Assembly (NCBI RefSeq): GCF_000497125.1
Contig: NC_090598.1
Coordinates: forward strand, 1,426,001-1,490,000
Direction: 5' to 3'
DNA: 64,000 nt
Origin: Spironucleus salmonicida
Lineage: Eukaryota
Shown: positions 24,801 through 64,000 of the stretch, piece after piece
How the letters are laid out: every line of letters starts with the position of its first letter
Position numbering within the stretch: the stretch's first letter is position 1
Program-made: the position numbers and the translations under genes
Notes under the pieces: model-generated
What the model saw: only the letters and a program-made list of their open reading frames with translations
Told to the model about the DNA's origin: nothing
Database searches by the model: none

Positions 24801-26063
24801 TATAATAATAGCTGATACCTATCCTGCCCACGTACTAATAAATAAATCGTGATTAAACTTGTTACCTTATACAGAATTTTTTAATTATTAATAGTACTCA
24901 TCAGTTTAATTAACCAAATATTTCAATTATGATTACTTTTTTATTTATTTTACAGTCATATCTGCTCCCTAAGAAAATTCTTAATCCGAATTAGCAGCAT
25001 CTTTTTAATCTTATGCAGATTGTAGTAATTGTTTTTATTTCTATAAAGCCATTAAAATATTGGCGTCATTATTCTGTGTATGTATTACAGCTTCACTTTC
25101 TACTATAACTTTACCTTTTTTATCGAATTATAAATTAATATAGTCTTCACCAAAGACTTTATCTTTACATAATTATATAAGTAAAAGTACATAAGACGGT
25201 TGATTTTATTCTTTAATTAATAATTACTCTCCAAATGTATTAAAAAATCTAAATTTTTATAAATCTGACCATGAACCTCGCTAAAATGGAACTGGTTATA
25301 AGAGCATAAATATAAGTTCATAAAATTCTTATGGTAATTATTACTGAGAATCCAAAGGTGGAATATTTTACTTGAGATGCTCTTTACCAACACTCAAAAC
25401 TTTCTATGCATACTATACATAGTCTCCCTCGTCTAAATCTTAAAATGGAAAGCGATTAAAAGCTAAGAAATATAGAGAGCATCCTAATGAATAGAAATCT
25501 GAAGCATAAGAATAAATACCATCTTTAAGTAAAGTTTCAGGGGCTCTATGCATATAACCACATTTACGTATTGATCTTTCTATATCATCGGTATCCAGAG
25601 GCTTACTTTTTGATATAGTACATGCTGATTCGAATTCAAATAATTTCAATACTCCATTCTGGTTAAGTAAAATATTTTATGGACATAAGTCATTATACAG
25701 AATTTGATTTTAATGTAAATAAGATAATGCATCTCTTAGATCTGCAGAAAATATTGCAATCGAGTTTATTGGTAAAACTTTATCTTTTAAAATAAGCTTT
25801 TGCAACGTATATGGTTAGCAGAGCTCTGTAACTAGAGTGACACCGGTATTAGTTTAAAAATACGAAATAATACTTATTATATTCGGATGCTACAATTAAT
25901 TTAATATGTGCACCTAATGTTTTATGGACTATGCTACTACTGGAACTGATGTATTGAACTCATGAGCTGCTTGAAATACAAGTGATCCATGTTAACGTAC
26001 CCGAAATATTTTAGAGCCTGAATTTCCTATCCCTAATTCCTCATAGATTTTATAGTTCTGCAT
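21882..26063 (-). CDS. ULK4: ULK4/RUNKEL-like pseudokinase with long helical (HEAT/ARM-like) C-terminus
   Basis: MQNYKIYEELGIG..., HPNII, DLRDALSYLH, ILYNDLCPQNILL (no HRD), KLFEFE (no DFG), RAPE, SDFYSLG. About 1393 aa. Confidence 0.7.
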
Positions 26064-26122
26064 TTTTAAAATTCAGATAATTATATTGAAACACTATAAT
26101 TAATTCCCTTTCAAATTTTAAA

Positions 26123-29003: not shown

Positions 29004-34418
<5,415 letters not shown>

Positions 34419-34472
34419 AATTTGACAAACTAACTTAATTATATATGTATAATAAATATTATTAATATTGAA

Positions 34473-35231
<759 letters not shown>

Positions 35232-35257
35232 TAATAACAGTGTCAACTTTATTGTTA

Positions 35258-36184
35258 ATGAGATCAAAACATAATTTAAATAAGTAAAACCTAAGTAATA
35301 TTGAAGATAAAATAAACAATCCAGAGGCTGTATTGTTTTTAGATGTCTCGAGTAATAACATAACTAGTCTATAATAATTTAGCAATTTTATTTCAATCTA
35401 AGAACTTAAATTATCATACAATTTTGTTTTTGATCTATAATAAGTGACTTACTTATCAAATTTGCGAAATTTAAAATAATTAGATCTCACATTCAATCCT
35501 GTCTCTTAGAATACTGAATTTCGACTATTTTGCATAAGATTAATTCCAACATTAACAATGCTTAATATGAAACCTGTCACATCAGAAGAGTAAATCTAAT
35601 CTTCGTGTTATTAATTTTAAACACCTATACAATTTCCAGTTAGTCTAGACACACTAAGTCAACCTACTGAATTATTAAAAAATGAGACTTAATAAGAATC
35701 ACCTAAAACTTTAATTCCTAAAATGTAAGATGGTTAAAATATTTCTATTATTCAACAAATTAAAGATTTGTAAGAAGTAGAAGATTCTGATTCTACTTAT
35801 GACTTCCAGTCTTAATAATCTTAAACTTAAATGGTTCCAACTTTAAATCCAAAAGATTAAGTAGCTAAAGATAATACAATATAATAAAGCACATCTTTTC
35901 AAACTATGAGGAAATCTAGTTAGTAAACACGGTAATTACCTACTTTATCAGCCCCATCTATGTAAAAAGGTGGAATGCCTAAATAGGCTAATCCTTTAAC
36001 ACCAAAAAAGGAGAACAAACCGCCAATTAATCCCATTAAGAAGCCTGATATCAAAAAATCTGCTGAAAAATCAGAATTATAGTAAAAATTAATGTAGGCG
36101 ATTATGCCAATGTTAGATCTTTTGGATATACCACATTTAACACTGTTATAAGAAAATATTAATTAAAGAAGATAAAAAAAATGA
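35258..36184 (+). CDS. Leucine-rich-repeat protein, CFAP410/C21orf2-like
   Basis: LDVSSNNITSL, LKLSYNFV, LDLTFNPV and an LRRcap-like FRLFCIRLIPTLTMLN. The C-terminal LMQAIMPMLDLLDIPHL resembles the CFAP410 terminal helix motif. Confidence 0.65.
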
Positions 36185-42318: not shown

Positions 42319-42599
42319 TATAAAAATACATTTAAATTTATTATATATTTAATAATTAATAAGTATTATAATTTATTTAAAGCGAACCTGATTAACAATA
42401 CTTCATGATAATCTTATTAAAGCATATAGAGCTTATATTATCAGAATTTATAACCTTATTCTAACCTTAAACTCATAATTTTATGATATTTTATTTCATC
42501 ACCTTGCAATCCATAAGTTAAAAATAATCAATTATCATACTAAAGCAAAACTGTATAATAGTACTATTTGTCACGGCACTAGTTATCTCTGTATATGCT

Positions 42600-42674
42600 A
42601 AGACGGTGACGTCGCAGGACGTGGTGTACGCGCTGAAGCGCCAGGGCAAGACGCTCTACGGCTTCGGGATCTGA
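42600..42674 (+). pseudogene. H4: 5'-truncated histone H4 fragment at the array boundary
   Basis: Only [24 protein letters not shown] is present, joined directly to AT-rich unique DNA. Confidence 0.9.
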
Positions 42675-42856
42675 GTGATGCTATTCTTGTGGTACTCGTT
42701 GTGTGAGCGTGTGGTGCATAGGGCTTCCGTGTCTAGTGGGGTGGCGTACTTCCTGCACAGTGCCATAGTGCATATATGTAATATAATAATACTCATTCGG
42801 GCTTCCCGCAAGTATGATAGTGTATATAAATAATATAATACTAAGGACTCACGATT

Positions 42857-43234
42857 CCCGCAAAGTACCATACTGCCCGAGTATGGTATAATAGTACCAA
42901 ATTACGGCTCCCGCCCAAATGCCATACTTCACATATGCAACATTATAATCATAATCCTTCATGGCTCCCTTCCACTCGGCTGGTTTCCCATGGGCGGGAT
43001 GTCAAGGGGGCCTTGCCGAAGCCCTTGCCCTTGCCTTTTCCCAACGTCGGTTGGCATGCAGCGTATAATAATGTAATGTTGGTGTCCCTTCCGATATGTT
43101 AAAGTGGGAATAGGCAATATAATAAAGGGGATTTGCCCTTTCCCGCGAAGTATGATAGGGCATATATACGGTATTATAGTGAGTATTCCCGCTCCCCGCA
43201 AAGTACCATACTGCCCGAGTATGGTATAATAGTA
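42857..43234. repeat. 40-bp direct repeat within each H4 spacer (42857-42896 and 43195-43234), each containing a 9-bp-stem hairpin
   Basis: CCCGCAAAGTACCATACTGCCCGAGTATGGTATAATAGTA occurs twice, with inverted arms TACCATACT/AGTATGGTA. Confidence 0.9.
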
Positions 43235-43959
43235 GCAAATTACGCCTCCCGCCAAAACAGCATTCTGCACATAAATACGCGTGGGCGTATATAAATAATA
43301 CATATATGGCCTATAGCCACTATATGTGCGAGGTTCCTCTACCACCCCACACGGTATTCATATGCTCATAATGGCGAAGTGGGCCGTCGTCCACCTCGTC
43401 CCCACCAGAGGAGAGAACTCGCCCGGTTTGCCCTTGCCCTTGCCCTTCCCGGACGTCCGCAGGAGCTCGTCCGGAGGCTGGCAGTACCGCCCGGTCTCGC
43501 CCGGCGTGGCACGCACTTGCTTGGGCGGCGTGCGATGGCGCGAGATGACACCCGATGCATGGCACGGCGCGAGATCATCTTAGATGGCCTGCCTGCCGTG
43601 CCCCGCGCCCCGCGCCCATATGGGGCCTACGGGGCCGAGATATGGAGTTCCGGTGAAAATGAGTCTGCAGTTCTGCATATTGAACACGGTAAATTTAGTA
43701 GATAGATATTTGTATACATCACATATAACATACATACCTATATTCCATAAATCCCTATATGCATCTATATATACTTATACCTATATTCGCACACCGCAAC
43801 TACTTTCGTCACTATAACTATATATTATTCATATTAAAACTCGCTCCCGCCCCCGCCCCAACATATATATTTTATATAGCATATATAAGTATGGGTTCGC
43901 GAACCGATAGCTGGTTTCATCACCAACCTCATAATGCAGGAGTGAGGGTGCTATCAACA

Positions 43960-46900
43960 ATGTCTGGAAAAGGAAAGGGAAAAGGTTTTGGAAAGGCGAC
44001 AGACTCGGAGAACACTAGCGATAGTGTAGACCCTGTTGCTCTCACCGCCTAATAAATTCGTATTAGAAGCCTGTTCAAACAGGCACCTGCTCTACCCCAA
44101 CCCCAACCCCAGTCGATCGCTAGTCACATTTCTTCTACCATGAAGAAGCAATAGGCACCTCCAACGTCTAATGGTGACCCCTCGACTTTGACATATTCCC
44201 CCTTCACATAAGTTTCAAGCGTGAGACTGTTCAAGCAGGGCCAGGCAAGCCGGGAGGCTCCTGTGCTCTCAGATAAGACCAATAAATCTATCATGAGCTT
44301 CGTGAAAGCAAGAGAAGAAGAAAGAGCCCCGCAAGGTGCTCCGGACACTTCGGCTGCCGACACTCAGAATCGCGCGCAATTCCCTTCCACACAAATTCAC
44401 GGGGAAACTACAGCTGCGCTCGTTAACTGCCAAGACGAGTAAGCTTAGGAGGTAGCTAGTCTAGCTGCCCCTAACGCAGCGGAAGTGACTGAACAACCGC
44501 CCTCCTCATAGGTTGCCAGTTAAGAAGGGGCCCCAACCGATTAACCTAGCCTCTAACCAGAGAGCTAAGAGGAAAGCGAGGCCCCGCCTCGCCCGGATCC
44601 CCCAGATGCTCCGGACTACGGGATAGACCCACCAATTCCCAGGCTACCCTCACAAAACATACCGGTAGAGCCCAGAGTCAGACCTCAACTGAATTCAATC
44701 ACCCGGTATGGTATCGTCCACGAGACGAGATCTCAGACAAGACTTATTCCTGAGACACGTGCCCCAAGCACAACAGAAAGTAACGAACACGCTAGACCAA
44801 GGAACCCTGACAAGCCTTTTGAATGTCAGGCATGCACCTTCGCGTCGTCCGACCCCACGAGCCTGCTGAGACATCACGCGCTCACGAGAGGCGGATAGCA
44901 CGATATAAAGTTCCCGCTACTTAGATACAAAGAAGTTTACGAAGACCCCAAACTCTTCAGATTCTACTGTGGAATCTGTAATCACCCTTTTACGAAGAAA
45001 TTAAATGTCATGCTCCACCTAATGGATGGAAAATGCAAGAACAAGTAAGGAATGACAAACGAAGCTGCCCAATTGCTAGTAAGAAATAGAGATGTCTATA
45101 GCCTCGAACTAGAGGAATAGCTGGCAAAAGCATCGGCCGCCAAGGCGGCAAGAGCGAAGAGTATAGCAGAATAAATAACTGCACCCAAAATAGGACTTCC
45201 ACCGGAAGCGACGATCAACCTATCTCCTTTAGGTTGCGCTACGGACAAGAAGAATTTAGCATTACGTTTTATCCAGATGAAACTGGAGATTGAAAACGGA
45301 GCTGACATCCTAGACGCCTTTAACTAATTCATAGGCGCATTCAGAAGAAAACAGGCATGTAACACCAGACGCGATACCAATCAAAAATAGATAGATTTCT
45401 GCTTTTAGAGAGGACAGACTGGAAAGGCATGGAACCTTATTAAGGAAAATTAGAACAAGTAGAACCTATCCCCAGAAAACGCCAGCTCCAGACCGGACCT
45501 GGTTAGAGAGTTATTTTAGGAAAACCGGAAACCCGAATATGAATCGGCATCGCGGTAGGGATCAGTAAGAACAGCGCTGCAAGCGCCAACGGCAGAAGAG
45601 ATTACGAAGATAATCCTATAGTACCGGGATGGCAAAGCAGGCGGCCCGAGTGGCATTCTTCCAGCCCACCTGAAAGAACTTGAGAAGTCTCATCACATCT
45701 CAAACATTCTTGCGAAGGTATACAAACTAATACTTGATACACCATCCCTAGTGAACAAGACTAGGAGACTATTCGAATACCGGATAATCTTCATCCCAAA
45801 GAACGCGACCAAGTTTAGACCGATTTGCATACAGGAGTTATTCCTATAAGTCCTGCACAAAGCACTGGCAGAGAAGATGAAGCAGCAACTAACCCTAGGC
45901 AATTATCAATTCGCCTTTACCAAAAACGCTCTCCTCAGAGCCAAATATTAAGCTAATATCATGCTTAAGAATGGGCTCACCCTTACTTCCCTTGACGTAC
46001 GAAACGCCTTTAACGCCGTACCTCATAAAGTAATCGAAGAAGAACTCGTGAAAGCCGGCCTAGCACCGGAAACCAACCAATACATCCAAGCCTTTTTGAT
46101 GGCGCGGAATGCGGAGGGGTTGGAAAGGCTAGGCACCGGCGTCCCCCAAGGGGATCCATTGTCCATGATGCTATTCTGTGTTGTAATGCGCCCGATCCTA
46201 GATCGGCTCGCAGGCAAATACAAGGTTATCGCATCGTACGCGGACGATGTCCTGATAGGTCACGATTCAGGAGTAAACCTCAAAGACTGTGAAAGCGTCT
46301 TTGCAGACTACGGGCTAACCCTGTCTGTGGAGAAATGCATAACAGCCTCCCCCACCCAAGCGATTAAATTCGTTGGGTAAGAATTTAAGGACAAACCGAT
46401 ACCGTTAACAGATCACTTGCTCCAAACCGCTCAGGATGCCTTCCTACTCCTCGAGCAATCGAAGCTCGGGACCACCCAATAACGGTTCCAGATGTTTGTA
46501 CAATGTATTGTTCCCTCAGTCAACTATGGCCCACTTGTGGACGTCACGGATGACTAGGAAGCCGGATATACGAAGATAGACGACAGCCTTGTTGCCACCA
46601 CCTCGCTGATAGCGGGACTAAGCATAAAGATTGAAACTCTATTGGATAGCTAGATCCGGGGTGGAATGAACGTGATCACACCTGGTCGCTTCTACCCACT
46701 CATGACCGCAGCACGCGATGAATTCCATGAGAACAATCACTGCGTCTTTAGAAATATCAGGGAGAAAATCAAAGAACTCGTTCCGGACGATCCAGATCCT
46801 GGACGCCCGATGATTTTCCCCTGCATCTTAGGAGCCACCAGGCTCCCTGGACAGTCTGTCCAGTATCTCTTGAACTCGGCTTTCGGCCCGGTAGCGACAC

Positions 46901-47520
46901 CCAGTAAAACCCATTTGTGTACGCTATGCGGTACCCCTAAGATTGGAGATCACGACCAAAAATGCAATAGAAATAGCGGAATCCGAATAGTTAGACACAA
47001 CAAGGCTGTCTCAGCCGCGATGAACTGCCTAGCGAAGTACGAGCCCCGTGAAATAACACGTCAATAAGCTCCTGAAGGAAAGTTTTATCCGGACTTCAGA
47101 ATCATTGTAAGTAAAATCCTGACAGTAGACCTAGATGTCACGTTTACTTCGCAAGAGAATATGGACGCGAAATTTGCAGAAAAGGTTAGAAAGCATAAAT
47201 TGCCTGACCCTAACCAGACTATAATCCCAATGGTTATCTCACATGAACTTTAAATTCATCGCGAGACACTCAAGTTGTTGAAATTCCACTTCCCGGAGTT
47301 CAACTACAGGAAATTTATGGAAGCGGTGGGAACTGCGACCTGTTTCTATAGACAGGACTCAGTTCGAAACAACACTGCACGATAGATCATAGCTCTCCAG
47401 GATAGGAACTATGGTTTAGAGGAAGACGTTGCAATACGTCTTAATTGGAGAAATGCTGCGAAGAATAACAATCGCAGGCGCCAGCACGCCAGAGGGAGTG
47501 CTGTCGCACCCGGGCCGTGA
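43960..47520 (+). CDS. H4(1-13)-fused retrotransposon ORF: zinc fingers + reverse transcriptase + CCHC + restriction-like endonuclease (1186 aa; first element-internal ATG at 44140)
   Basis: No in-frame TGA from the H4 ATG to 47518. Motifs: CQAC..HH..H, CGIC..H..C, GKAGGPSG, FIPK..FRPI, LDVRNAFN, GVPQGDPLS, YADD (46237), CTLC..H..C, RHN, YPDF, DLDVT, EKVRKH. Confidence 0.92.
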
Positions 47521-47610
47521 GGCCAGGGAAAACAAGAAAACCCCCCCCGACAGGGGCAGTAAAGATCCCATATACGCAATGAGGAATGGCAGTACTCGAG
47601 TGATCTTTTA

Positions 47611-47642
<32 letters not shown>
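44000..47642 (+). mobile_element. Site-specific RLE-type non-LTR retrotransposon, copy 1 (full length, 31-A tail)
   Basis: Interrupts H4 after GGAAAGGCGA. Single RT-RLE ORF, ~90-nt 3' UTR, poly(A) at 47612-47642, and H4 resumes at CAAATCCGAG. Confidence 0.95.
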
Positions 47643-47643
<1 letters not shown>

Positions 47644-47895
47644 AAATCCGAGAAGGATGCACTCACAGGCATCACCAAGCCTGCCATACGCAGGTTGGCG
47701 CGCAGAGGTGGCGTGAAGAGGATCTCGTCCACGATCTACCCCCAGACGCGCGAGGTGCTGAAGGCGTTCCTGGACGTGGTCATCAGGGACTCGCTGACCT
47801 ACACTGAGCACGCGCAGCGCAAGACGGTGACGTCGCAGGACGTGGTGTACGCGCTGAAGCGCCAGGGCAAGACGCTCTACGGCTTCGGGATCTGA
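47643..47895 (+). pseudogene. H4: 3' remainder of interrupted histone H4 (copy 1)
   Basis: Identical to intact H4 from CAAATCC to TGA. Confidence 0.92.
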
Positions 47896-49180
47896 GTGAT
47901 GCTATTCTTGTGGTACTCGTTGTGTGAGCGTGTGGTGCATAGGGCTTCCGTGTCTAGTGGGGTGGCGTACTTCCTGCACAGTGCCATAGTGCATATATGT
48001 AATATAATAATACTCATTCGGGCTTCCCGCAAGTATGATAGTGTATATAAATAATATAATACTAAGGACTCACGATTCCCGCAAAGTACCATACTGCCCG
48101 AGTATGGTATAATAGTACCAAATTACGGCTCCCGCCCAAATGCCATACTTCACATATGCAACATTATAATCATAATCCTTCATGGCTCCCTTCCACTCGG
48201 CTGGTTTCCCATGGGCGGGATGTCAAGGGGGCCTTGCCGAAGCCCTTGCCCTTGCCTTTTCCCAACGTCGGTTGGCATGCAGCGTATAATAATGTAATGT
48301 TGGTGTCCCTTCCGATATGTTAAAGTGGGAATAGGCAATATAATAAAGGGGATTTTCCCTTTCCCGCGAAGTATGATAGGGCATATATACGGTATTATAG
48401 TGAGTATTCCCGCTCCCCGCAAAGTACCATACTGCCCGAGTATGGTATAATAGTAGCAAATTACGCCTCCCGCCAAAACAGCATTCTGCACATAAATACG
48501 CGTGGGCGTATATAAATAATACATATATGGCCTATAGCCACTATATGTGCGAGGTTCCTCTACCACCCCACACGGTATTCATATGCTCATAATGGCGAAG
48601 TGGGCCGTCGTCCACCTCGTCCCCACCAGAGGAGAGAACTCGCCCGGTTTGCCCTTGCCCTTGCCCTTCCCGGACGTCCGCAGGAGCTCGTCCGGAGGCT
48701 GGCAGTACCGCCCGGTCTCGCCCGGCGTGGCACGCACTTGCTTGGGCGGCGTGCGATGGCGCGAGATGACACCCGATGCATGGCACGGCGCGAGATCATC
48801 TTAGATGGCCTGCCTGCCGTGCCCCGCGCCCCGCGCCCATATGGGGCCTACGGGGCCGAGATATGGAGTTCCGGTGAAAATGAGTCTGCAGTTCTGCATA
48901 TTGAACACGGTAAATTTAGTAGATAGATATTTGTATACATCACATATAACATACATACCTATATTCCATAAATCCCTATATGCATCTATATATACTTATA
49001 CCTATATTCGCACACCGCAACCACTTTCGTCACTATAACTATATATTATTCATATTAAAACTCGCTCCCGCCCCCGCCCCAACATATATATTTTATATAG
49101 CATATATAAGTATGGGTTCGCGAACCGATAGCTGGTTTCATCACCAACCTCATAATGCAGGAGTGAGGGTGCTATCAACA

Positions 49181-49480
49181 ATGTCTGGAAAAGGAAAGGG
49201 AAAAGGTTTTGGAAAGGCGAAAAGACACAAATCCGAGAAGGATGCACTCACAGGCATCACCAAGCCTGCCATACGCAGGTTGGCGCGCAGAGGTGGCGTG
49301 AAGAGGATCTCGTCCACGATCTACCCCCAGACGCGCGAGGTGCTGAAGGCGTTCCTGGACGTGGTCATCAGGGACTCGCTGACCTACACTGAGCACGCGC
49401 AGCGCAAGACGGTGACGTCGCAGGACGTGGTGTACGCGCTGAAGCGCCAGGGCAAGACGCTCTACGGCTTCGGGATCTGA
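49181..49480 (+). CDS. H4: Histone H4 (99 aa)
   Basis: [17 protein letters not shown]...[20 protein letters not shown]...[18 protein letters not shown]. Confidence 0.98.
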
Positions 49481-50765
49481 GTGATGCTATTCTTGTGGTA
49501 CTCGTTGTGTGAGCGTGTGGTGCATAGGGCTTCCGTGTCTAGTGGGGTGGCGTACTTCCTGCACAGTGCCATAGTGCATATATGTAATATAATAATACTC
49601 ATTCGGGCTTCCCGCAAGTATGATAGTGTATATAAATAATATAATACTAAGGACTCACGATTCCCGCAAAGTACCATACTGCCCGAGTATGGTATAATAG
49701 TACCAAATTACGGCTCCCGCCCAAATGCCATACTTCACATATGCAACATTATAATCATAATCCTTCATGGCTCCCTTCCACTCGGCTGGTTTCCCATGGG
49801 CGGGATGTCAAGGGGGCCTTGCCGAAGCCCTTGCCCTTGCCTTTTCCCAACGTCGGTTGGCATGCAGCGTATAATAATGTAATGTTGGTGTCCCTTCCGA
49901 TATGTTAAAGTGGGAATAGGCAATATAATAAAGGGGATTTTCCCTTTCCCGCGAAGTATGATAGGGCATATATACGGTATTATAGTGAGTATTCCCGCTC
50001 CCCGCAAAGTACCATACTGCCCGAGTATGGTATAATAGTAGCAAATTACGCCTCCCGCCAAAACAGCATTCTGCACATAAATACGCGTGGGCGTATATAA
50101 ATAATACATATATGGCCTATAGCCACTATATGTGCGAGGTTCCTCTACCACCCCACACGGTATTCATATGCTCATAATGGCGAAGTGGGCCGTCGTCCAC
50201 CTCGTCCCCACCAGAGGAGAGAACTCGCCCGGTTTGCCCTTGCCCTTGCCCTTCCCGGACGTCCGCAGGAGCTCGTCCGGAGGCTGGCAGTACCGCCCGG
50301 TCTCGCCCGGCGTGGCACGCACTTGCTTGGGCGGCGTGCGATGGCGCGAGATGACACCCGATGCATGGCACGGCGCGAGATCATCTTAGATGGCCTGCCT
50401 GCCGTGCCCCGCGCCCCGCGCCCATATGGGGCCTACGGGGCCGAGATATGGAGTTCCGGTGAAAATGAGTCTGCAGTTCTGCATATTGAACACGGTAAAT
50501 TTAGTAGATAGATATTTGTATACATCACATATAACATACATACCTATATTCCATAAATCCCTATATGCATCTATATATACTTATACCTATATTCGCACAC
50601 CGCAACCACTTTCGTCACTATAACTATATATTATTCATATTAAAACTCGCTCCCGCCCCCGCCCCAACATATATATTTTATATAGCATATATAAGTATGG
50701 GTTCGCGAACCGATAGCTGGTTTCATCACCAACCTCATAATGCAGGAGTGAGGGTGCTATCAACA

Positions 50766-51065
50766 ATGTCTGGAAAAGGAAAGGGAAAAGGTTTTGGAAA
50801 GGCGAAAAGACACAAATCCGAGAAGGATGCACTCACAGGCATCACCAAGCCTGCCATACGCAGGTTGGCGCGCAGAGGTGGCGTGAAGAGGATCTCGTCC
50901 ACGATCTACCCCCAGACGCGCGAGGTGCTGAAGGCGTTCCTGGACGTGGTCATCAGGGACTCGCTGACCTACACTGAGCACGCGCAGCGCAAGACGGTGA
51001 CGTCGCAGGACGTGGTGTACGCGCTGAAGCGCCAGGGCAAGACGCTCTACGGCTTCGGGATCTGA
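50766..51065 (+). CDS. H4: Histone H4 (99 aa)
   Basis: Identical intact copy. Confidence 0.98.
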
Positions 51066-52350
51066 GTGATGCTATTCTTGTGGTACTCGTTGTGTGAGCG
51101 TGTGGTGCATAGGGCTTCCGTGTCTAGTGGGGTGGCGTACTTCCTGCACAGTGCCATAGTGCATATATGTAATATAATAATACTCATTCGGGCTTCCCGC
51201 AAGTATGATAGTGTATATAAATAATATAATACTAAGGACTCACGATTCCCGCAAAGTACCATACTGCCCGAGTATGGTATAATAGTACCAAATTACGGCT
51301 CCCGCCCAAATGCCATACTTCACATATGCAACATTATAATCATAATCCTTCATGGCTCCCTTCCACTCGGCTGGTTTCCCATGGGCGGGATGTCAAGGGG
51401 GCCTTGCCGAAGCCCTTGCCCTTGCCTTTTCCCAACGTCGGTTGGCATGCAGCGTATAATAATGTAATGTTGGTGTCCCTTCCGATATGTTAAAGTGGGA
51501 ATAGGCAATATAATAAAGGGGATTTTCCCTTTCCCGCGAAGTATGATAGGGCATATATACGGTATTATAGTGAGTATTCCCGCTCCCCGCAAAGTACCAT
51601 ACTGCCCGAGTATGGTATAATAGTAGCAAATTACGCCTCCCGCCAAAACAGCATTCTGCACATAAATACGCGTGGGCGTATATAAATAATACATATATGG
51701 CCTATAGCCACTATATGTGCGAGGTTCCTCTACCACCCCACACGGTATTCATATGCTCATAATGGCGAAGTGGGCCGTCGTCCACCTCGTCCCCACCAGA
51801 GGAGAGAACTCGCCCGGTTTGCCCTTGCCCTTGCCCTTCCCGGACGTCCGCAGGAGCTCGTCCGGAGGCTGGCAGTACCGCCCGGTCTCGCCCGGCGTGG
51901 CACGCACTTGCTTGGGCGGCGTGCGATGGCGCGAGATGACACCCGATGCATGGCACGGCGCGAGATCATCTTAGATGGCCTGCCTGCCGTGCCCCGCGCC
52001 CCGCGCCCATATGGGGCCTACGGGGCCGAGATATGGAGTTCCGGTGAAAATGAGTCTGCAGTTCTGCATATTGAACACGGTAAATTTAGTAGATAGATAT
52101 TTGTATACATCACATATAACATACATACCTATATTCCATAAATCCCTATATGCATCTATATATACTTATACCTATATTCGCACACCGCAACCACTTTCGT
52201 CACTATAACTATATATTATTCATATTAAAACTCGCTCCCGCCCCCGCCCCAACATATATATTTTATATAGCATATATAAGTATGGGTTCGCGAACCGATA
52301 GCTGGTTTCATCACCAACCTCATAATGCAGGAGTGAGGGTGCTATCAACA

Positions 52351-52650
52351 ATGTCTGGAAAAGGAAAGGGAAAAGGTTTTGGAAAGGCGAAAAGACACAA
52401 ATCCGAGAAGGATGCACTCACAGGCATCACCAAGCCTGCCATACGCAGGTTGGCGCGCAGAGGTGGCGTGAAGAGGATCTCGTCCACGATCTACCCCCAG
52501 ACGCGCGAGGTGCTGAAGGCGTTCCTGGACGTGGTCATCAGGGACTCGCTGACCTACACTGAGCACGCGCAGCGCAAGACGGTGACGTCGCAGGACGTGG
52601 TGTACGCGCTGAAGCGCCAGGGCAAGACGCTCTACGGCTTCGGGATCTGA
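52351..52650 (+). CDS. H4: Histone H4 (99 aa)
   Basis: Identical intact copy. Confidence 0.98.
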
Positions 52651-53935
52651 GTGATGCTATTCTTGTGGTACTCGTTGTGTGAGCGTGTGGTGCATAGGGC
52701 TTCCGTGTCTAGTGGGGTGGCGTACTTCCTGCACAGTGCCATAGTGCATATATGTAATATAATAATACTCATTCGGGCTTCCCGCAAGTATGATAGTGTA
52801 TATAAATAATATAATACTAAGGACTCACGATTCCCGCAAAGTACCATACTGCCCGAGTATGGTATAATAGTACCAAATTACGGCTCCCGCCCAAATGCCA
52901 TACTTCACATATGCAACATTATAATCATAATCCTTCATGGCTCCCTTCCACTCGGCTGGTTTCCCATGGGCGGGATGTCAAGGGGGCCTTGCCGAAGCCC
53001 TTGCCCTTGCCTTTTCCCAACGTCGGTTGGCATGCAGCGTATAATAATGTAATGTTGGTGTCCCTTCCGATATGTTAAAGTGGGAATAGGCAATATAATA
53101 AAGGGGATTTTCCCTTTCCCGCGAAGTATGATAGGGCATATATACGGTATTATAGTGAGTATTCCCGCTCCCCGCAAAGTACCATACTGCCCGAGTATGG
53201 TATAATAGTAGCAAATTACGCCTCCCGCCAAAACAGCATTCTGCACATAAATACGCGTGGGCGTATATAAATAATACATATATGGCCTATAGCCACTATA
53301 TGTGCGAGGTTCCTCTACCACCCCACACGGTATTCATATGCTCATAATGGCGAAGTGGGCCGTCGTCCACCTCGTCCCCACCAGAGGAGAGAACTCGCCC
53401 GGTTTGCCCTTGCCCTTGCCCTTCCCGGACGTCCGCAGGAGCTCGTCCGGAGGCTGGCAGTACCGCCCGGTCTCGCCCGGCGTGGCACGCACTTGCTTGG
53501 GCGGCGTGCGATGGCGCGAGATGACACCCGATGCATGGCACGGCGCGAGATCATCTTAGATGGCCTGCCTGCCGTGCCCCGCGCCCCGCGCCCATATGGG
53601 GCCTACGGGGCCGAGATATGGAGTTCCGGTGAAAATGAGTCTGCAGTTCTGCATATTGAACACGGTAAATTTAGTAGATAGATATTTGTATACATCACAT
53701 ATAACATACATACCTATATTCCATAAATCCCTATATGCATCTATATATACTTATACCTATATTCGCACACCGCAACCACTTTCGTCACTATAACTATATA
53801 TTATTCATATTAAAACTCGCTCCCGCCCCCGCCCCAACATATATATTTTATATAGCATATATAAGTATGGGTTCGCGAACCGATAGCTGGTTTCATCACC
53901 AACCTCATAATGCAGGAGTGAGGGTGCTATCAACA

Positions 53936-56900
53936 ATGTCTGGAAAAGGAAAGGGAAAAGGTTTTGGAAAGGCGACAGACTCGGAGAACACTAGCGATAG
54001 TGTAGACCCTGTTGCTCTCACCGCCTAATAAATTCGTATTAGAAGCCTGTTCAAACAGGCACCTGCTCTACCCCAACCCCAACCCCAGTCGATCGCTAGT
54101 CACATTTCTTCTACCATGAAGAAGCATTAGGCACCTCCAACGTCTAATGGTGACCCCTCGACTTTGACATATTCCCCCTTCACATAAGTTTCAAGCGTGA
54201 GACTGTTCAAGCAGGGCCAGGCAAGCCGGGAGGCTCCTGTGCTCTCAGATAAGACCAATAAATCTATCATGAGCTTCGTGAAAGCAAGAGAAGAAGAAAG
54301 AGCCCCGCAAGGTGCTCCGGACACTTCGGCTGCCGACACTCAGAATCGCGCGCAATTCCCTTCCACACAAATTCACGGGGAAACTACAGCTGCGCTCGTT
54401 AACTGCCAAGACGAGTAAGCTTAGGAGGTAGCTAGTCTAGCTGCCCCTAACGCAGCGGAAGTGACTGAACAACCGCCCTCCTCATAGGTTGCCAGTTAAG
54501 AAGGGGCCCCAACCGATTAACCTAGCCTCTAACCAGAGAGCTAAGAGGAAAGCGAGGCCCCGCCTCGCCCGGATCCCCCAGATGCTCCGGACTACGGGAT
54601 AGACCCACCAATTCCCAGGCTACCCTCACAAAACATACCGGTAGAGCCCAGAGTCAGACCTCAACTGAATTCAATCACCCGGTATGGTATCGTCCACGAG
54701 ACGAGATCTCAGACAAGACTTATTCCTGAGACACGTGCCCCAAGCACAACAGAAAGTAACGAACACGCTAGACCAAGGAACCCTGACAAGCCTTTTGAAT
54801 GTCAGGCATGCACCTTCGCGTCGTCCGACCCCACGAGCCTGCTGAGACATCACGCGCTCACGAGAGGCGGATAGCACGATATAAAGTTCCCGCTACTTAG
54901 ATACAAAGAAGTTTACGAAGACCCCAAACTCTTCAGATTCTACTGTGGAATCTGTAATCACCCTTTTACGAAGAAATTAAATGTCATGCTCCACCTAATG
55001 GATGGAAAATGCAAGAACAAGTAAGGAATGACAAACGAAGCTGCCCAATTGCTAGTAAGAAATAGAGATGTCTATAGCCTCGAACTAGAGGAATAGCTGG
55101 CAAAAGCATCGGCCGCCAAGGCGGCAAGAGCGAAGAGTATAGCAGAATAAATAACTGCACCCAAAATAGGACTTCCACCGGAAGCGACGATCAACCTATC
55201 TCCTTTAGGTTGCGCTACGGACAAGAAGAATTTAGCATTACGTTTTATCCAGATGAAACTGGAGATTGAAAACGGAGCTGACATCCTAGACGCCTTTAAC
55301 TAATTCATAGGCGCATTCAGAAGAAAACAGGCATGTAACACCAGACGCGATACCAATCAAAAATAGATAGATTTCTGCTTTTAGAGAGGACAGACTGGAA
55401 AGGCATGGAACCTTATTAAGGAAAATTAGAACAAGTAGAACCTATCCCCAGAAAACGCCAGCTCCAGACCGGACCTGGTTAGAGAGTTATTTTAGGAAAA
55501 CCGGAAACCCGAATATGAATCGGCATCGCGGTAGGGATCAGTAAGAACAGCGCTGCAAGCGCCAACGGCAGAAGAGATTACGAAGATAATCCTATAGTAC
55601 CGGGATGGCAAAGCAGGCGGCCCGAGTGGCATTCTTCCAGCCCACCTGAAAGAACTTGAGAAGTCTCATCACATCTCAAACATTCTTGCGAAGGTATACA
55701 AACTAATACTTGATACACCATCCCTAGTGAACAAGACTAGGAGACTATTCGAATACCGGATAATCTTCATCCCAAAGAACGCGACCAAGTTTAGACCGAT
55801 TTGCATACAGGAGTTATTCCTATAAGTCCTGCACAAAGCACTGGCAGAGAAGATGAAGCAGCAACTAACCCTAGGCAATTATCAATTCGCCTTTACCAAA
55901 AACGCTCTCCTCAGAGCCAAATATTAAGCTAATATCATGCTTAAGAATGGGCTCACCCTTACTTCCCTTGACGTACGAAACGCCTTTAACGCCGTACCTC
56001 ATAAAGTAATCGAAGAAGAACTCGTGAAAGCCGGCCTAGCACCGGAAACCAACCAATACATCCAAGCCTTTTTGATGGCGCGGAATGCGGAGGGGTTGGA
56101 AAGGCTAGGCACCGGCGTCCCCCAAGGGGATCCATTGTCCATGATGCTATTCTGTGTTGTAATGCGCCCGATCCTAGATCGGCTCGCAGGCAAATACAAG
56201 GTTATCGCATCGTACGCGGACGATGTCCTGATAGGTCACGATTCAGGAGTAAACCTCAAAGACTGTGAAAGCGTCTTTGCAGACTACGGGCTAACCCTGT
56301 CTGTGGAGAAATGCATAACAGCCTCCCCCACCCAAGCGATTAAATTCGTTGGGTAAGAATTTAAGGACAAACCGATACCGTTAACAGATCACTTGCTCCA
56401 AACCGCTCAGGATGCCTTCCTAATCCTCGAGCAATCGAAGCTCGGGACCACCCAATAACGGTTCCAGATGTTTGTACAATGTATTGTTCCCTCAGTCAAC
56501 TATGGCCCACTTGTGGACGTCACGGATGACTAGGAAGCCGGATATACGAAGATAGACGACAGCCTTGTTGCCACCACCTCGCTGATAGCGGGACTAAGCA
56601 TAAAGATTGAAACTCTATTGGATAGCTAGATCCGGGGTGGAATGAACGTGATCACACCTGGTCGCTTCTACCCACTCATGACCGCAGCACGCGATGAATT
56701 CCATGAGAACAATCACTGCGTCTTTAGAAATATCAGGGAGAAAATCAAAGAACTCGTTCCGGACGATCCAGATCCTGGACGCCCGATGATTTTCCCCTGC
56801 ATCTTAGGAGCCACCAGGCTCCCTGGACAGTCTGTCCAGTATCTCTTGAACTCGGCTTTCGGCCCGGTAGCGACACCCAGTAAAACCCATTTGTGTACGC

Positions 56901-57496
56901 TATGCGGTACCCCTAAGATTGGAGATCACGACCAAAAATGCAATAGAAATAGCGGAATCCGAATAGTTAGACACAACAAGGCTGTCTCAGCCGCGATGAA
57001 CTGCCTAGCGAAGTACGAGCCCCGTGAAATAACACGTCAATAAGCTCCTGAAGGAAAGTTTTATCCGGACTTCAGAATCATTGTAAGTAAAATCCTGACA
57101 GTAGACCTAGATGTCACGTTTACTTCGCAAGAGAATATGGACGCGAAATTTGCAGAAAAGGTTAGAAAGCATAAATTGCCTGACCCTAACCAGACTATAA
57201 TCCCAATGGTTATCTCACATGAACTTTAAATTCATCGCGAGACACTCAAGTTGTTGAAATTCCACTTCCCGGAGTTCAACTACAGGAAATTTATGGAAGC
57301 GGTGGGAACTGCGACCTGTTTCTATAGACAGGACTCAGTTCGAAACAACACTGCACGATAGATCATAGCTCTCCAGGATAGGAACTATGGTTTAGAGGAA
57401 GACGTTGCAATACGTCTTAATTGGAGAAATGCTGCGAAGAATAACAATCGCAGGCGCCAGCACGCCAGAGGGAGTGCTGTCGCACCCGGGCCGTGA
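53936..57496 (+). CDS. H4(1-13)-fused retrotransposon RT-RLE ORF, copy 2
   Basis: Colinear with copy 1 at offset +9976, with TGA at 57494-57496. Only point substitutions seen. Confidence 0.9.
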
Positions 57497-57618
57497 GGCC
57501 AGGGAAAACAAGAAAACCCCCCCCCCGACAGGGGCAGTAAAGATCCCATATACGCAATGAGGAATGGCAGTACTCGAGTGATCTTTTACAAAAAAAAAAA
57601 AAAAAAAAAAAAAAAAAA
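53976..57618 (+). mobile_element. Site-specific RLE-type non-LTR retrotransposon, copy 2 (full length, 29-A tail)
   Basis: Same 5' and 3' junctions in H4 as copy 1. Poly(A) at 57590-57618. Confidence 0.95.
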
Positions 57619-57871
57619 CAAATCCGAGAAGGATGCACTCACAGGCATCACCAAGCCTGCCATACGCAGGTTGGCGCGCAGAGGTGGCGTGAAGAGGATC
57701 TCGTCCACGATCTACCCCCAGACGCGCGAGGTGCTGAAGGCGTTCCTGGACGTGGTCATCAGGGACTCGCTGACCTACACTGAGCACGCGCAGCGCAAGA
57801 CGGTGACGTCGCAGGACGTGGTGTACGCGCTGAAGCGCCAGGGCAAGACGCTCTACGGCTTCGGGATCTGA
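57619..57871 (+). pseudogene. H4: 3' remainder of interrupted histone H4 (copy 2)
   Basis: Identical to intact H4 from CAAATCC to TGA. Confidence 0.92.
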
Positions 57872-59156
57872 GTGATGCTATTCTTGTGGTACTCGTTGTG
57901 TGAGCGTGTGGTGCATAGGGCTTCCGTGTCTAGTGGGGTGGCGTACTTCCTGCACAGTGCCATAGTGCATATATGTAATATAATAATACTCATTCGGGCT
58001 TCCCGCAAGTATGATAGTGTATATAAATAATATAATACTAAGGACTCACGATTCCCGCAAAGTACCATACTGCCCGAGTATGGTATAATAGTACCAAATT
58101 ACGGCTCCCGCCCAAATGCCATACTTCACATATGCAACATTATAATCATAATCCTTCATGGCTCCCTTCCACTCGGCTGGTTTCCCATGGGCGGGATGTC
58201 AAGGGGGCCTTGCCGAAGCCCTTGCCCTTGCCTTTTCCCAACGTCGGTTGGCATGCAGCGTATAATAATGTAATGTTGGTGTCCCTTCCGATATGTTAAA
58301 GTGGGAATAGGCAATATAATAAAGGGGATTTTCCCTTTCCCGCGAAGTATGATAGGGCATATATACGGTATTATAGTGAGTATTCCCGCTCCCCGCAAAG
58401 TACCATACTGGCCGAGTATGGTATAATAGTAGCAAATTACGCCTCCCGCCAAAACAGCATTCTGCACATAAATACGCGTGGGCGTATATAAATAATACAT
58501 ATATGGCCTATAGCCACTATATGTGCGAGGTTCCTCTACCACCCCACACGGTATTCATATGCTCATAATGGCGAAGTGGGCCGTCGTCCACCTCGTCCCC
58601 ACCAGAGGAGAGAACTCGCCCGGTTTGCCCTTGCCCTTGCCCTTCCCGGACGTCCGCAGGAGCTCGTCCGGAGGCTGGCAGTACCGCCCGGTCTCGCCCG
58701 GCGTGGCACGCACTTGCTTGGGCGGCGTGCGATGGCGCGAGATGACACCCGATGCATGGCACGGCGCGAGATCATCTTAGATGGCCTGCCTGCCGTGCCC
58801 CGCGCCCCGCGCCCATATGGGGCCTACGGGGCCGAGATATGGAGTTCCGGTGAAAATGAGTCTGCAGTTCTGCATATTGAACACGGTAAATTTAGTAGAT
58901 AGATATTTGTATACATCACATATAACATACATACCTATATTCCATAAATCCCTATATGCATCTATATATACTTATACCTATATTCGCACACCGCAACCAC
59001 TTTCGTCACTATAACTATATATTATTCATATTAAAACTCGCTCCCGCCCCCGCCCCAACATATATATTTTATATAGCATATATAAGTATGGGTTCGCGAA
59101 CCGATAGCTGGTTTCATCACCAACCTCATAATGCAGGAGTGAGGGTGCTATCAACA

Positions 59157-59456
59157 ATGTCTGGAAAAGGAAAGGGAAAAGGTTTTGGAAAGGCGAAAAG
59201 ACACAAATCCGAGAAGGATGCACTCACAGGCATCACCAAGCCTGCCATACGCAGGTTGGCGCGCAGAGGTGGCGTGAAGAGGATCTCGTCCACGATCTAC
59301 CCCCAGACGCGCGAGGTGCTGAAGGCGTTCCTGGACGTGGTCATCAGGGACTCGCTGACCTACACTGAGCACGCGCAGCGCAAGACGGTGACGTCGCAGG
59401 ACGTGGTGTACGCGCTGAAGCGCCAGGGCAAGACGCTCTACGGCTTCGGGATCTGA
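59157..59456 (+). CDS. H4: Histone H4 (99 aa)
   Basis: Identical intact copy. Confidence 0.98.
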
Positions 59457-60741
59457 GTGATGCTATTCTTGTGGTACTCGTTGTGTGAGCGTGTGGTGCA
59501 TAGGGCTTCCGTGTCTAGTGGGGTGGCGTACTTCCTGCACAGTGCCATAGTGCATATATGTAATATAATAATACTCATTCGGGCTTCCCGCAAGTATGAT
59601 AGTGTATATAAATAATATAATACTAAGGACTCACGATTCCCGCAAAGTACCATACTGCCCGAGTATGGTATAATAGTACCAAATTACGGCTCCCGCCCAA
59701 ATGCCATACTTCACATATGCAACATTATAATCATAATCCTTCATGGCTCCCTTCCACTCGGCTGGTTTCCCATGGGCGGGATGTCAAGGGGGCCTTGCCG
59801 AAGCCCTTGCCCTTGCCTTTTCCCAACGTCGGTTGGCATGCAGCGTATAATAATGTAATGTTGGTGTCCCTTCCGATATGTTAAAGTGGGAATAGGCAAT
59901 ATAATAAAGGGGATTTTCCCTTTCCCGCGAAGTATGATAGGGCATATATACGGTATTATAGTGAGTATTCCCGCTCCCCGCAAAGTACCATACTGGCCGA
60001 GTATGGTATAATAGTAGCAAATTACGCCTCCCGCCAAAACAGCATTCTGCACATAAATACGCGTGGGCGTATATAAATAATACATATATGGCCTATAGCC
60101 ACTATATGTGCGAGGTTCCTCTACCACCCCACACGGTATTCATATGCTCATAATGGCGAAGTGGGCCGTCGTCCACCTCGTCCCCACCAGAGGAGAGAAC
60201 TCGCCCGGTTTGCCCTTGCCCTTGCCCTTCCCGGACGTCCGCAGGAGCTCGTCCGGAGGCTGGCAGTACCGCCCGGTCTCGCCCGGCGTGGCACGCACTT
60301 GCTTGGGCGGCGTGCGATGGCGCGAGATGACACCCGATGCATGGCACGGCGCGAGATCATCTTAGATGGCCTGCCTGCCGTGCCCCGCGCCCCGCGCCCA
60401 TATGGGGCCTACGGGGCCGAGATATGGAGTTCCGGTGAAAATGAGTCTGCAGTTCTGCATATTGAACACGGTAAATTTAGTAGATAGATATTTGTATACA
60501 TCACATATAACATACATACCTATATTCCATAAATCCCTATATGCATCTATATATACTTATACCTATATTCGCACACCGCAACTACTTTCGTCACTATAAC
60601 TATATATTATTCATATTAAAACTCGCTCCCGCCCCCGCCCCAACATATATATTTTATATAGCATATATAAGTATGGGTTCGCGAACCGATAGCTGGTTTC
60701 ATCACCAACCTCATAATGCAGGAGTGAGGGTGCTATCAACA

Positions 60742-63700
60742 ATGTCTGGAAAAGGAAAGGGAAAAGGTTTTGGAAAGGCGACAGACTCGGAGAACACTAG
60801 CGATAGTGTAGACCCTGTTGCTCTCACCGCCTAATAAATTCGTATTAGAAGCCTGTTCAAACAGGCACCTGCTCTACCCCAACCCCAACCCCAGTCGATC
60901 GCTAGTCACATTTCTTCTACCATGAAGAAGCAATAGGCACCTCCAACGTCTAATGGTGACCCCTCGACTTTGACATATTCCCCCTTCACATAAGTTTCAA
61001 GCGTGAGACTGTTCAAGCAGGGCCAGGCAAGCCGGGAGGCTCCTGTGCTCTCAGATAAGACCAATAAATCTATCATGGGCTTCGTGAAAGCAAGAGAAGA
61101 AGAAAGAGCCCCGCAAGGTGCTCCGGACACTTCGGCTGCCGACACTCAGAATCGCGCGCAATTCCCTTCCACACAAATTCACGGGGAAACTACAGCTGCG
61201 CTCGTTAACTGCCAAGACGAGTAAGCTTAGGAGGTAGCTAGTCTAGCTGCCCCTAACGCAGCGGAAGTGACTGAACAACCGCCCTCCTCATAGGTTGCCA
61301 GTTAAGAAGGGGCCCCAACCGATTAACCTAGCCTCTAACCAGAGAGCTAAGAGGAAAGCGAGGCCCCGCCTCGCCCGGATCCCCCAGATGCTCCGGACTA
61401 CGGGATAGACCCACCAATTCCCAGGCTACCCTCACAAAACATACCGGTAGAGCCCAGAGTCAGACCTCAACTGAATTCAATCACCCGGTATGGTATCGTC
61501 CACGAGACGAGATCTCAGACAAGACTTATTCCTGAGACACGTGCCCCAAGCACAACAGAAAGTAACGAACACGCTAGACCAAGGAACCCTGACAAGCCTT
61601 TTGAATGTCAGGCATGCACCTTCGCGTCGTCCGACCCCACGAGCCTGCTGAGACATCACGCGCTCACGAGAGGCGGATAGCACGATATAAAGTTCCCGCT
61701 ACTTAGATACAAAGAAGTTTACGAAGACCCCAAACTCTTCAGATTCTACTGTGGAATCTGTAATCACCCTTTTACGAAGAAATTAAATGTCATGCTCCAC
61801 CTAATGGATGGAAAATGCAAGAACAAGTAAGGAATGACAAACGAAGCTGCCCAATTGCTAGTAAGAAATAGAGATGTCTATAGCCTCGAACTAGAGGAAT
61901 AGCTGGCAAAAGCATCGGCCGCCAAGGCGGCAAGAGCGAAGAGTATAGCAGAATAAATAACTGCACCCAAAATAGGACTTCCACCGGAAGCGACGATCAA
62001 CCTATCTCCTTTAGGTTGCGCTACGGACAAGAAGAATTTAGCATTACGTTTTATCCAGATGAAACTGGAGATTGAAAACGGAGCTGACATCCTAGACGCC
62101 TTTAACTAATTCATAGGCGCATTCAGAAGAAAACAGGCATGTAACACCAGACGCGATACCAATCAAAAATAGATAGATTTCTGCTTTTAGAGAGGACAGA
62201 CTGGAAAGGCATGGAACCTTATTAAGGAAAATTAGAACAAGTAGAACCTATCCCCAGAAAACGCCAGCTCCAGACCGGACCTGGTTAGAGAGTTATTTTA
62301 GGAAAACCGGAAACCCGAATATGAATCGGCATCGCGGTAGGGATCAGTAAGAACAGCGCTGCAAGCGCCAACGGCAGAAGAGATTACGAAGATAATCCTA
62401 TAGTACCGGGATGGCAAAGCAGGCGGCCCGAGTGGCATTCTTCCAGCCCACCTGAAAGAACTTGAGAAGTCTCATCACATCTCAAACATTCTTGCGAAGG
62501 TATACAAACTAATACTTGATACACCATCCCTAGTGAACAAGACTAGGAGACTATTCGAATACCGGATAATCTTCATCCCAAAGAACGCGACCAAGTTTAG
62601 ACCGATTTGCATACAGGAGTTATTCCTATAAGTCCTGCACAAAGCACTGGCAGAGAAGATGAAGCAGCAACTAACCCTAGGCAATTATCAATTCGCCTTT
62701 ACCAAAAACGCTCTCCTCAGAGCCAAATATTAAGCTAATATCATGCTTAAGAATGGGCTCACCCTTACTTCCCTTGACGTACGAAACGCCTTTAACGCCG
62801 TACCTCATAAAGTAATCGAAGAAGAACTCGTGAAAGCCGGCCTAGCACCGGAAACCAACCAATACATCCAAGCCTTTTTGATGGCGCGGAATGCGGAGGG
62901 GTTGGAAAGGCTAGGCACCGGCGTCCCCCAAGGGGATCCATTGTCCATGATGCTATTCTGTGTTGTAATGCGCCCGATCCTAGATCGGCTCGCAGGCAAA
63001 TACAAGGTTATCGCATCGTACGCGGACGATGTCCTGATAGGTCACGATTCAGGAGTAAACCTCAAAGACTGTGAAAGCGTCTTTGCAGACTACGGGCTAA
63101 CCCTGTCTGTGGAGAAATGCATAACAGCCTCCCCCACCCAAGCGATTAAATTCGTTGGGTAAGAATTTAAGGACAAACCGATACCGTTAACAGATCACTT
63201 GCTCCAAACCGCTCAGGATGCCTTCCTACTCCTCGAGCAATCGAAGCTCGGGACCACCCAATAACGGTTCCAGATGTTTGTACAATGTATTGTTCCCTCA
63301 GTCAACTATGGCCCACTTGTGGACGTCACGGATGACTAGGAAGCCGGATATACGAAGATAGACGACAGCCTTGTTGCCACCACCTCGCTGATAGCGGGAC
63401 TAAGCATAAAGATTGAAACTCTATTGGATAGCTAGATCCGGGGTGGAATGAACGTGATCACACCTGGTCGCTTCTACCCACTCATGACCGCAGCACGCGA
63501 TGAATTCCATGAGAACAATCACTGCGTCTTTAGAAATATCAGGGAGAAAATCAAAGAACTCGTTCCGGACGATCCAGATCCTGGACGCCCGATGATTTTC
63601 CCCTGCATCTTAGGAGCCACCAGGCTCCCTGGACAGTCTGTCCAGTATCTCTTGAACTCGGCTTTCGGCCCGGTAGCGACACCCAGTAAAACCCATTTGT

Positions 63701-64000
63701 GTACGCTATGCGGTACCCCTAAGATTGGAGATCACGACCAAAAATGCAATAGAAATAGCGGAATCCGAATAGTTAGACACAACAAGGCTGTCTCAGCCGC
63801 GATGAACTGCCTAGCGAAGTACGAGCCCCGTGAAATAACACGTCAATAAGCTCCTGAAGGAAAGTTTTATCCGGACTTCAGAATCATTGTAAGTAAAATC
63901 CTGACAGTAGACCTAGATGTCACGTTTACTTCGCAAGAGAATATGGACGCGAAATTTGCAGAAAAGGTTAGAAAGCATAAATTGCCTGACCCTAACCAGA
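60742..64000 (+). CDS. H4(1-13)-fused retrotransposon RT-RLE ORF, copy 3 (runs off window)
   Basis: Colinear with copy 1 at offset +16782. Confidence 0.88.
60782..64000 (+). mobile_element. Site-specific RLE-type non-LTR retrotransposon, copy 3 (3' end outside window)
   Basis: Same 5' junction GGAAAGGCGA|CAGACTCGG. Confidence 0.93.

Follow-up and report, generated by a model that had tools for sequence, protein, structure and literature searches.

A non-LTR retrotransposon of the restriction-like endonuclease type, probably site-specific for tandem histone H4 genes, in Spironucleus salmonicida, and its probable expression as an in-frame H4 fusion

The window analyzed here, a 64-kb stretch of Spironucleus salmonicida DNA, holds from 42.6 to 64 kb a tandem array whose 1585-bp unit consists of a 300-bp histone H4 gene and a 1285-bp spacer. 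Ordinary genes, two kinases among them, adjoin the array, and its left edge is an H4 3′ fragment (codons 76-99 and the stop codon; 42600..42674, forward strand). Seven H4 copies bear an ATG (at 43960, 49181, 50766, 52351, 53936, 59157 and 60742). Four of these are intact (49181..49480, 50766..51065, 52351..52650 and 59157..59456, all on the forward strand), and the remaining three are interrupted after H4 nt 40. The top PDB match of the array H4 protein was chain 7d69_B (E=9.7e-54). The seven spacers in the window are near-identical (47896..49180 is the one downstream of the first interrupted gene); long ORFs that run across the spacer under genetic code 6 were treated as chance, being without a Pfam match. 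All four allele combinations are present at two spacer sites, and therefore the array recombines.

Each interrupted H4 gene carries an element on the forward strand, starting at 44000, 53976 and 60782, in every case directly after H4 nt 40. Copy 1 is preceded by H4 nt 1-40 (43960..43999; the ATG plus tail codons 1-13, sharing the frame of the element ORF), spans 3612 bp (44000..47611), ends in a 31-nt poly(A) tail (47612..47642) and is followed by H4 nt 48-300 (47643..47895). Copy 2 is arranged in the same way, with H4 nt 1-40 in frame at 53936..53975, the element to 57589 and a 29-nt poly(A) at 57590-57618 (together 53976..57618), and H4 nt 48-300 at 57619..57871. Copy 3 (60782..64000), also preceded by H4 nt 1-40 in frame (60742..60781), is cut by the window end. 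Copy 2 is 99.89% identical to copy 1, from which it differs by 2 substitutions and 2 extra C, and copy 3 is 99.97% identical, with 1 substitution. These coordinates and the 99.9% identity agree with the original prediction of three near-identical elements at the same H4 nucleotide, in the same orientation, amid intact H4 genes, and the poly(A) that it had placed at the end of the two complete copies was found in both.

After the poly(A), H4 resumes at nt 48 (nt 47 if the last A belongs to H4). A stretch of 6-7 nt of the target is replaced in each complete copy, and a target-site duplication is absent. No terminal repeat or LTR was found in the element by self-BLAST, and no further copy within the 64-kb window by BLASTN. 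The window copies have the same junctions, and none is 5′-truncated. The motif AGTGA at 47599..47603 (forward strand), 8 nt before the tail, matches the putative Spironucleus poly(A) signal, which is placed about 14 nt before the tail in the available text of PMC3916229. The RNA folds of the element ends were unremarkable (z=-1.77 for the 5′ end and z=-1.73 for the 3′ end).

Long ORFs appeared only on translation with table 6, the check suggested at the outset: there is one per copy under code 6, and under code 1 there is no ORF of at least 250 aa in 42-64 kb. The use of an alternative genetic code by Hexamitinae is described in the accessible part of PMC11787283. Taken together with RT relatives from Giardia and Hexamita inflata, the code makes a hexamitine diplomonad the most probable host. 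The fused ORF of copy 1 (43960..47520, forward strand; 1186 aa under code 6) comprises H4(1-13), a low-complexity P/Q/E/S region, zinc fingers, a reverse transcriptase (RT), a CCHC knuckle and an endonuclease. Its frame is open for 1186 codons from the H4 ATG, and the other two frames contain 26 and 20 stops. The predicted domain set, a single ORF with two zinc fingers, a YADD RT, a CCHC knuckle and an RHN..E..PD..D..K endonuclease, was recovered in full. Two N-terminal zinc fingers (aa 289-314 and 337-359) are encoded at 44824..45036, the RT core at 45793..46383 (Pfam RVT_1, E=3.5e-23; YADD, residue 760, at 46237-46248), and the CCHC knuckle with the restriction-like endonuclease (RLE) motifs at 46918..47199, all on the forward strand. 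In the 1186-aa frame, the CCHC knuckle occupies residues 987-1002, followed by RHN at 1012, E1028, PD at 1044-1045, VDLDV at 1056-1060 and EKVRKHK at 1074-1080.

The five best PDB sequence matches of the element protein were R2 proteins, and in weak local alignments its endonuclease motifs coincide with those of two R2 proteins. We modelled aa 276-1147 with AlphaFold from 63 sequences (pLDDT 83.6, pTM 0.76), and in a Foldseek comparison the seven best matches were again R2 proteins (TM 0.44-0.56), followed by LINE-1 ORF2p. The fold match to R2 spans 800-1100 columns, at 15-17% identity to solved R2 proteins. Members of the R2 clade have a Myb domain after the zinc fingers, and the element protein gave no Pfam Myb match at E<=0.1.

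The nearest named relatives are RT/endonucleases of Giardia and Hexamita inflata, at ~29-30% identity. A scan of metagenome contigs yielded 12 loci and a scan of genome contigs yielded L013; no relative was found among viral contigs, and L001-L010 gave no Rfam match. A 33-row tree, built with a careful method and midpoint-rooted, placed the element in a 22-row group with the Giardia RT/endonucleases (support 95/86; the order inside the group is unresolved). L013 is sister to the window element (99/98), and one of the metagenome loci, L003, falls in a separate subclade with a Hexamita inflata protein (97/91). A quick tree with P0036 dropped had paired the window element with L003 (support 87), and this was superseded by the 33-row tree. 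The RT tree proposed along with the original prediction thus groups the element with Giardia RT/endonucleases, in a data set that contains no named R2, CRE or NeSL sequences. Judged from the protein sequences, the lineage is probably a diplomonad one, that of the Giardia/Hexamita RT-endonucleases, rather than R2. The initial label "R2-like" holds for the fold and probably not for ancestry.

The relatives also bear on the target. L013 is a code-6 RT contig, at 32% identity to the window protein, within a genome bin labelled as a bacterium (G001). The same bin contains an intact H4 gene (L014; 94/99 aa and 241/300 nt identical to window H4) and a contig, L016, in which the upstream spacer of L014 (95% over 376 nt) and H4 nt 1-44 lead directly into an element. 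The 5′ junction of L016 thus lies after H4 nt 44, and from the H4 ATG its frame has no stop in the 527 codons up to the contig end. This ORF holds zinc fingers, and L016 overlaps L013 by 139 identical nt. No contig in the bin joins an element 3′ end to H4. That junction is present in L003, which uses code 6 and is 28% identical to the window protein over 757 aa. Its ORF stops after nt 2500, and the 3′ UTR, in which AGTGA is present, is followed directly by H4 codons 14-32 in the same orientation, with the junction at H4 nt 40-42. The best PDB match of this peptide is an H4 (E=0.0025), as are 60/60 of the matches listed; 13 of its 19 residues are identical to window H4, and 300 shuffles reach at most 9. 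L016 and L003 are single assembled contigs each. All junctions seen, in the three window copies, L016 and L003, lie within H4 nt 40-48.

On the tree, the three rows linked to H4 are not monophyletic, and their distribution implies two changes, with targets assigned for these three rows only. Because relatives at only 28-32% identity occupy the same H4 site, the data support an old H4 target specificity in this lineage. The multicopy, protein-coding H4 gene that had been proposed as a safe harbour is hence supported by two relatives with junctions at H4 nt 40-44. With regard to copies at non-H4 sites, which would have spoken against such specificity, none lies elsewhere in the 64 kb. Among three metagenome loci with >80 nt past the stop, H4 follows in L003 only and not in L005 or L009; a further contig of the G001 bin, L017, carries a degenerate pair of copies in head-to-tail order, of which the second is 5′-truncated, and no H4. 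The truncation in L017 fits target-primed insertion; the outer flanks lie outside the contig.

A chance single insertion into H4, spread by unequal crossover and with no H4 specificity, would predict much of what is seen in the window: the copies share a single type of junction and 99.9% identity, the array recombines at the two spacer sites, and the spacer variant 1127T is found only in the spacers upstream of copies 1 and 3. This process may well account for the three window copies, which may all go back to a single insertion multiplied as the array recombined, and we did not take the difference in poly(A) length (31 vs 29) as a mark of independent insertions. As a full explanation, however, it is improbable, given the relatives at 28-32% identity in the same H4 codons, from two subclades, and the catalytic motifs that are intact in the 1186-codon frame. 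The concern that all copies stem from one amplified insertion is thus justified for the window and countered by the divergent relatives that share the H4 site.

We also considered whether the ORF is a domesticated host gene, a fusion of H4 tail, RT and endonuclease with a cellular role. Intact, full-length, in-frame copies in two lineages would suit such a gene. On the other hand, a genomic poly(A) tail is joined to the remainder of H4, the tandem copies in G001 are degenerate and truncated, and the N-terminus after the H4 tail is not conserved, which makes domestication very improbable. Still less credible is an assembly artefact from a collapsed repeat. The units are tandem and near-identical, and their copy number and order may be wrong; nevertheless, the same site recurs in unrelated assemblies, and contigs of 4/4 sequencing runs (2 studies) contain the element with 27-30 nt of adjoining H4, slightly short of the 31 nt required to count as bridging. 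Runs X1 and X2 may be the source sample of the assembly, and run contigs drop rare variants. The best DNA run contig covers 43970-47601 with no differences and 30 nt of H4, and no joints to other sequence are listed for the run contigs that cover the element. In X1, contig depth was 843 for the element and ~970-2080 for spacer and H4, depths that are not copy numbers or expression.

Every spacer contains an antisense relic of the H4 5′ end (48230..48268 in the spacer after copy 1, reverse strand). Codons 3-13 of the relic are protein-identical to H4, with 7 changes that are all synonymous third-position ones; its start codon has changed, and similarity ends at Ala13, adjoining the insertion site. 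The sequence that follows is without similarity to the present element. The relic, a pattern noticed post hoc, may represent the upstream target half left by an earlier insertion. The match of a second H4 relic ends at codon 9.

We next turn to expression. The H4 reading frame runs on into the element ORF, uninterrupted by a stop, at each of the two 5′ junctions known, that of the window copies and that of L016, a feature that the original prediction had not noted. As these junctions are 4 nt apart and both in frame, the reading frame must have been either retained or restored when the junction moved. A frame open to the first internal Met occurs in 61% and 63% of shuffles for the two junctions, and with 1/3 per frame the joint chance of both in-frame junctions is ~0.04, independence being assumed. 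Codon usage is weak evidence of coding (p=0.07 for codons 14-60 and p=0.035 for codons 14-111). In the 90% protein cluster, 3/3 members begin with the H4 tail; among 231 retrieved proteins, only the window's 3 have this start, in a set in which many are fragments and none comes with flanking sequence. Giardia mRNA leaders are mostly 0-14 nt and are said to work without scanning in the available text of PMC3196473, and by analogy short leaders without scanning may be used in hexamitines as well.

It is alternatively possible, although we regard it as unlikely, that an H4-specific element has its own promoter or an internal start (Met61 or Met112) and that the in-frame fusion is incidental. Internal ATGs do exist at 44140 (Met61) and 44293 (Met112), the first near a C-rich stretch, the codon signal in codons 14-60 is weak at p=0.07, and R2 ORFs are described as translatable without a normal start in the excerpts available from PMC13188248. 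However, both 5′ junctions are in frame although 4 nt apart, with the joint chance given above, and no Rfam family, including the HDV-like ribozymes that mark the 5′ end of R2 elements, was found in 42500-49600 at E<=5. We thus consider the fusion route, in which the H4 promoter and the H4 ATG serve the element, to be likely.

Runs X5-X8 were only guessed to be RNA. In X5, a contig has a loose end of poly(A) plus adapter 17 nt after the H4 stop. Contigs of X5 and X6 span from H4 nt 13-14 into the element, and contigs cannot show RNA starts.

Overall, we propose a putative mechanism, in which we infer where transcription and translation begin, that the target is nicked and that the element is still mobile. 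RNA polymerase II starting from the H4 promoter would read through the element and end at the host-type AGTGA signal, and the capped transcript would serve both as mRNA and as template. Because diplomonad leaders are very short, the ribosome would start at the H4 ATG and produce an H4(1-13)/element fusion protein. This protein would bind its own RNA and an intact H4 copy, its endonuclease would nick the H4 bottom strand near nt 47/48, and cDNA would be primed on the poly(A) end by target-primed reverse transcription. Since the RNA would begin with H4 nt 1-40, full-length cDNA could pair through this segment with the upstream target, giving identical in-frame 5′ junctions. The loss of H4 function would be buffered by the intact array copies.

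Of the parts of this reading, H4 targeting by the element is the one in which we have high confidence. We also think it quite probable that the element is a site-specific RLE non-LTR retrotransposon of a diplomonad lineage, targeting codons 14-16 of tandem H4 and expressed via the H4 promoter and ATG. On balance, we favour the fullest version, an old diplomonad RLE lineage specific for H4 codons 14-16 that is expressed only as an in-frame H4-tail fusion, with the host's promoter, cap, start codon and poly(A) signal, and whose H4 leader also builds the precise 5′ junctions. The element is probably active.

Our literature search, of which Repbase/Dfam and supplements were outside the scope, found no H4-targeting element. 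One sentence in the available text of PMC9509377 records four RT copies scattered through a tandem array of H4 in S. salmonicida, which resembles the arrangement in the window; that text mentions no retrotransposon, endonuclease, insertion site, poly(A) or fusion. The term "histone" is absent from the text available for PMC4640811, PMC4494074, PMC13188248, PMC3706591 and PMC12857005. The initial remark of not being aware of a described H4-targeting RLE element therefore stands for the literature searched, with the qualification that the co-occurrence of H4 and RT had already been recorded. The targets of site-specific retrotransposons listed in the accessible parts of PMC4640811 and PMC3706591 are RNA genes, telomeric repeats and microsatellites. 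With an H4-specific family, the safe harbours of such elements would come to include a tandem gene that encodes a protein and is transcribed by RNA polymerase II, and in-frame fusion would be a simple answer to the need for transcription and translation without an own promoter or ribozyme. "Pseudo" H4 copies in diplomonad arrays could be explained as insertion halves. Moreover, a compact RLE retrotransposon protein with a new DNA specificity would be useful for target-recognition work on R2-like gene-insertion proteins.

Several known systems invite comparison. The Tx1 clade carries an APE endonuclease, a different class from the RLE of our element, and histone H2B genes may be among the sites recorded for a Tx1 family. 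Tx1 insertion in H2B genes was not found in our literature search, nor does the searched text of PMC4494074, in which Tx1-clade elements target multicopy genes and repeats, contain the word "histone". R2 resembles our element in its single-site insertion into a tandem multicopy gene and its poly(A) end. R2 also causes a small loss of target sequence and is transcribed together with its host gene. The target of R2 is 28S rDNA, whereas that of our element is protein-coding H4; because its flanks are H4 and have no Rfam match, the element does not belong to R2, although it would work in a similar way.

In the CRE/SLACS group, spliced-leader genes serve as targets. Utopia/NeSL, CRE/SLACS and R4 are, like our element, RLE elements in low-copy tandem genes, and the targets listed for them in the available text of PMC4640811 are U2, tRNA and rRNA genes and microsatellites. 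According to the same text, Utopia persists with <=10 intact U2 genes per genome in Phytophthora. Unlike Utopia/NeSL and CRE/SLACS, which use U2 snRNA or spliced-leader genes, our element targets the H4 coding sequence. The Giardia RT/endonuclease retroelements of the AAL47181.1 cluster likewise encode a single ORF with a zinc finger, an RT, a CCHC knuckle and PD motifs. We take this cluster to be GilT/GilM/Genie. GilT and GilM are telomeric according to the excerpts available from PMC10999387, whereas our element lies in the H4 coding sequence with its ORF in frame with the host ATG. Compared with all of these systems, the target class, protein-coding H4, is new, and so, probably, is the expression route by in-frame fusion to H4.

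Each of the seven spacers in the H4 tandem array carries two antisense, minus-strand relics of the H4 5′ end, which lie in one spacer at 48230-48268 and 48651-48674. The start codons of both relics are altered, and their synonymous codons are GC-rich. The first relic ends at Ala13, adjoining the insertion site of the retrotransposon, and the second ends at codon 9.

The base composition of the H4 gene itself changes along its length. At 49181-49480, third-position GC is found in 7 of 20 codons from codon 2 to codon 21 compared with 71 of 78 later codons, and the intact H4 on L014, a contig of genome bin G001, shows 10/20 and 54/78, respectively. The target site of the element falls within an A-rich stretch of H4.

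The spacer also contains an internal duplication of approximately 170 bp (47988-48156 versus 48324-48494, 78% identity). At 48057, one contig from sequencing run X5, guessed to be RNA, has a loose end of 10-nt poly(T), which hints weakly that the minus strand of the spacer yields a polyadenylated transcript. The array opens with an H4 gene reduced to its final 75 nt (42600-42674), directly abutted by AT-rich unique DNA. Outside the array, two minus-strand genes encode large proteins, each of which has a protein kinase domain at its N-terminus (29004-35486, Pfam E=2.2e-70; 21882-26072, Pfam E=8.1e-38). A long trinucleotide simple repeat of the TAT/AAT type lies at about 34400-35300, upstream of a minus-strand kinase gene.

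G001 (L013-L019) is labelled as a bacterium; its contigs include code-6 eukaryotic sequences that carry an H4 gene and a retrotransposon. On the minus strand of L017:1-1632, two frameshifted element copies, 94.5% identical to each other, lie head-to-tail, and the second is 5′-truncated. Several related elements share AGTGA, the putative Spironucleus poly(A) signal, close to their 3′ ends: within 47599-47611 in the window, within 2571-2587 of metagenome contig L003, at the 3′ end of metagenome contig L008, and in L017.
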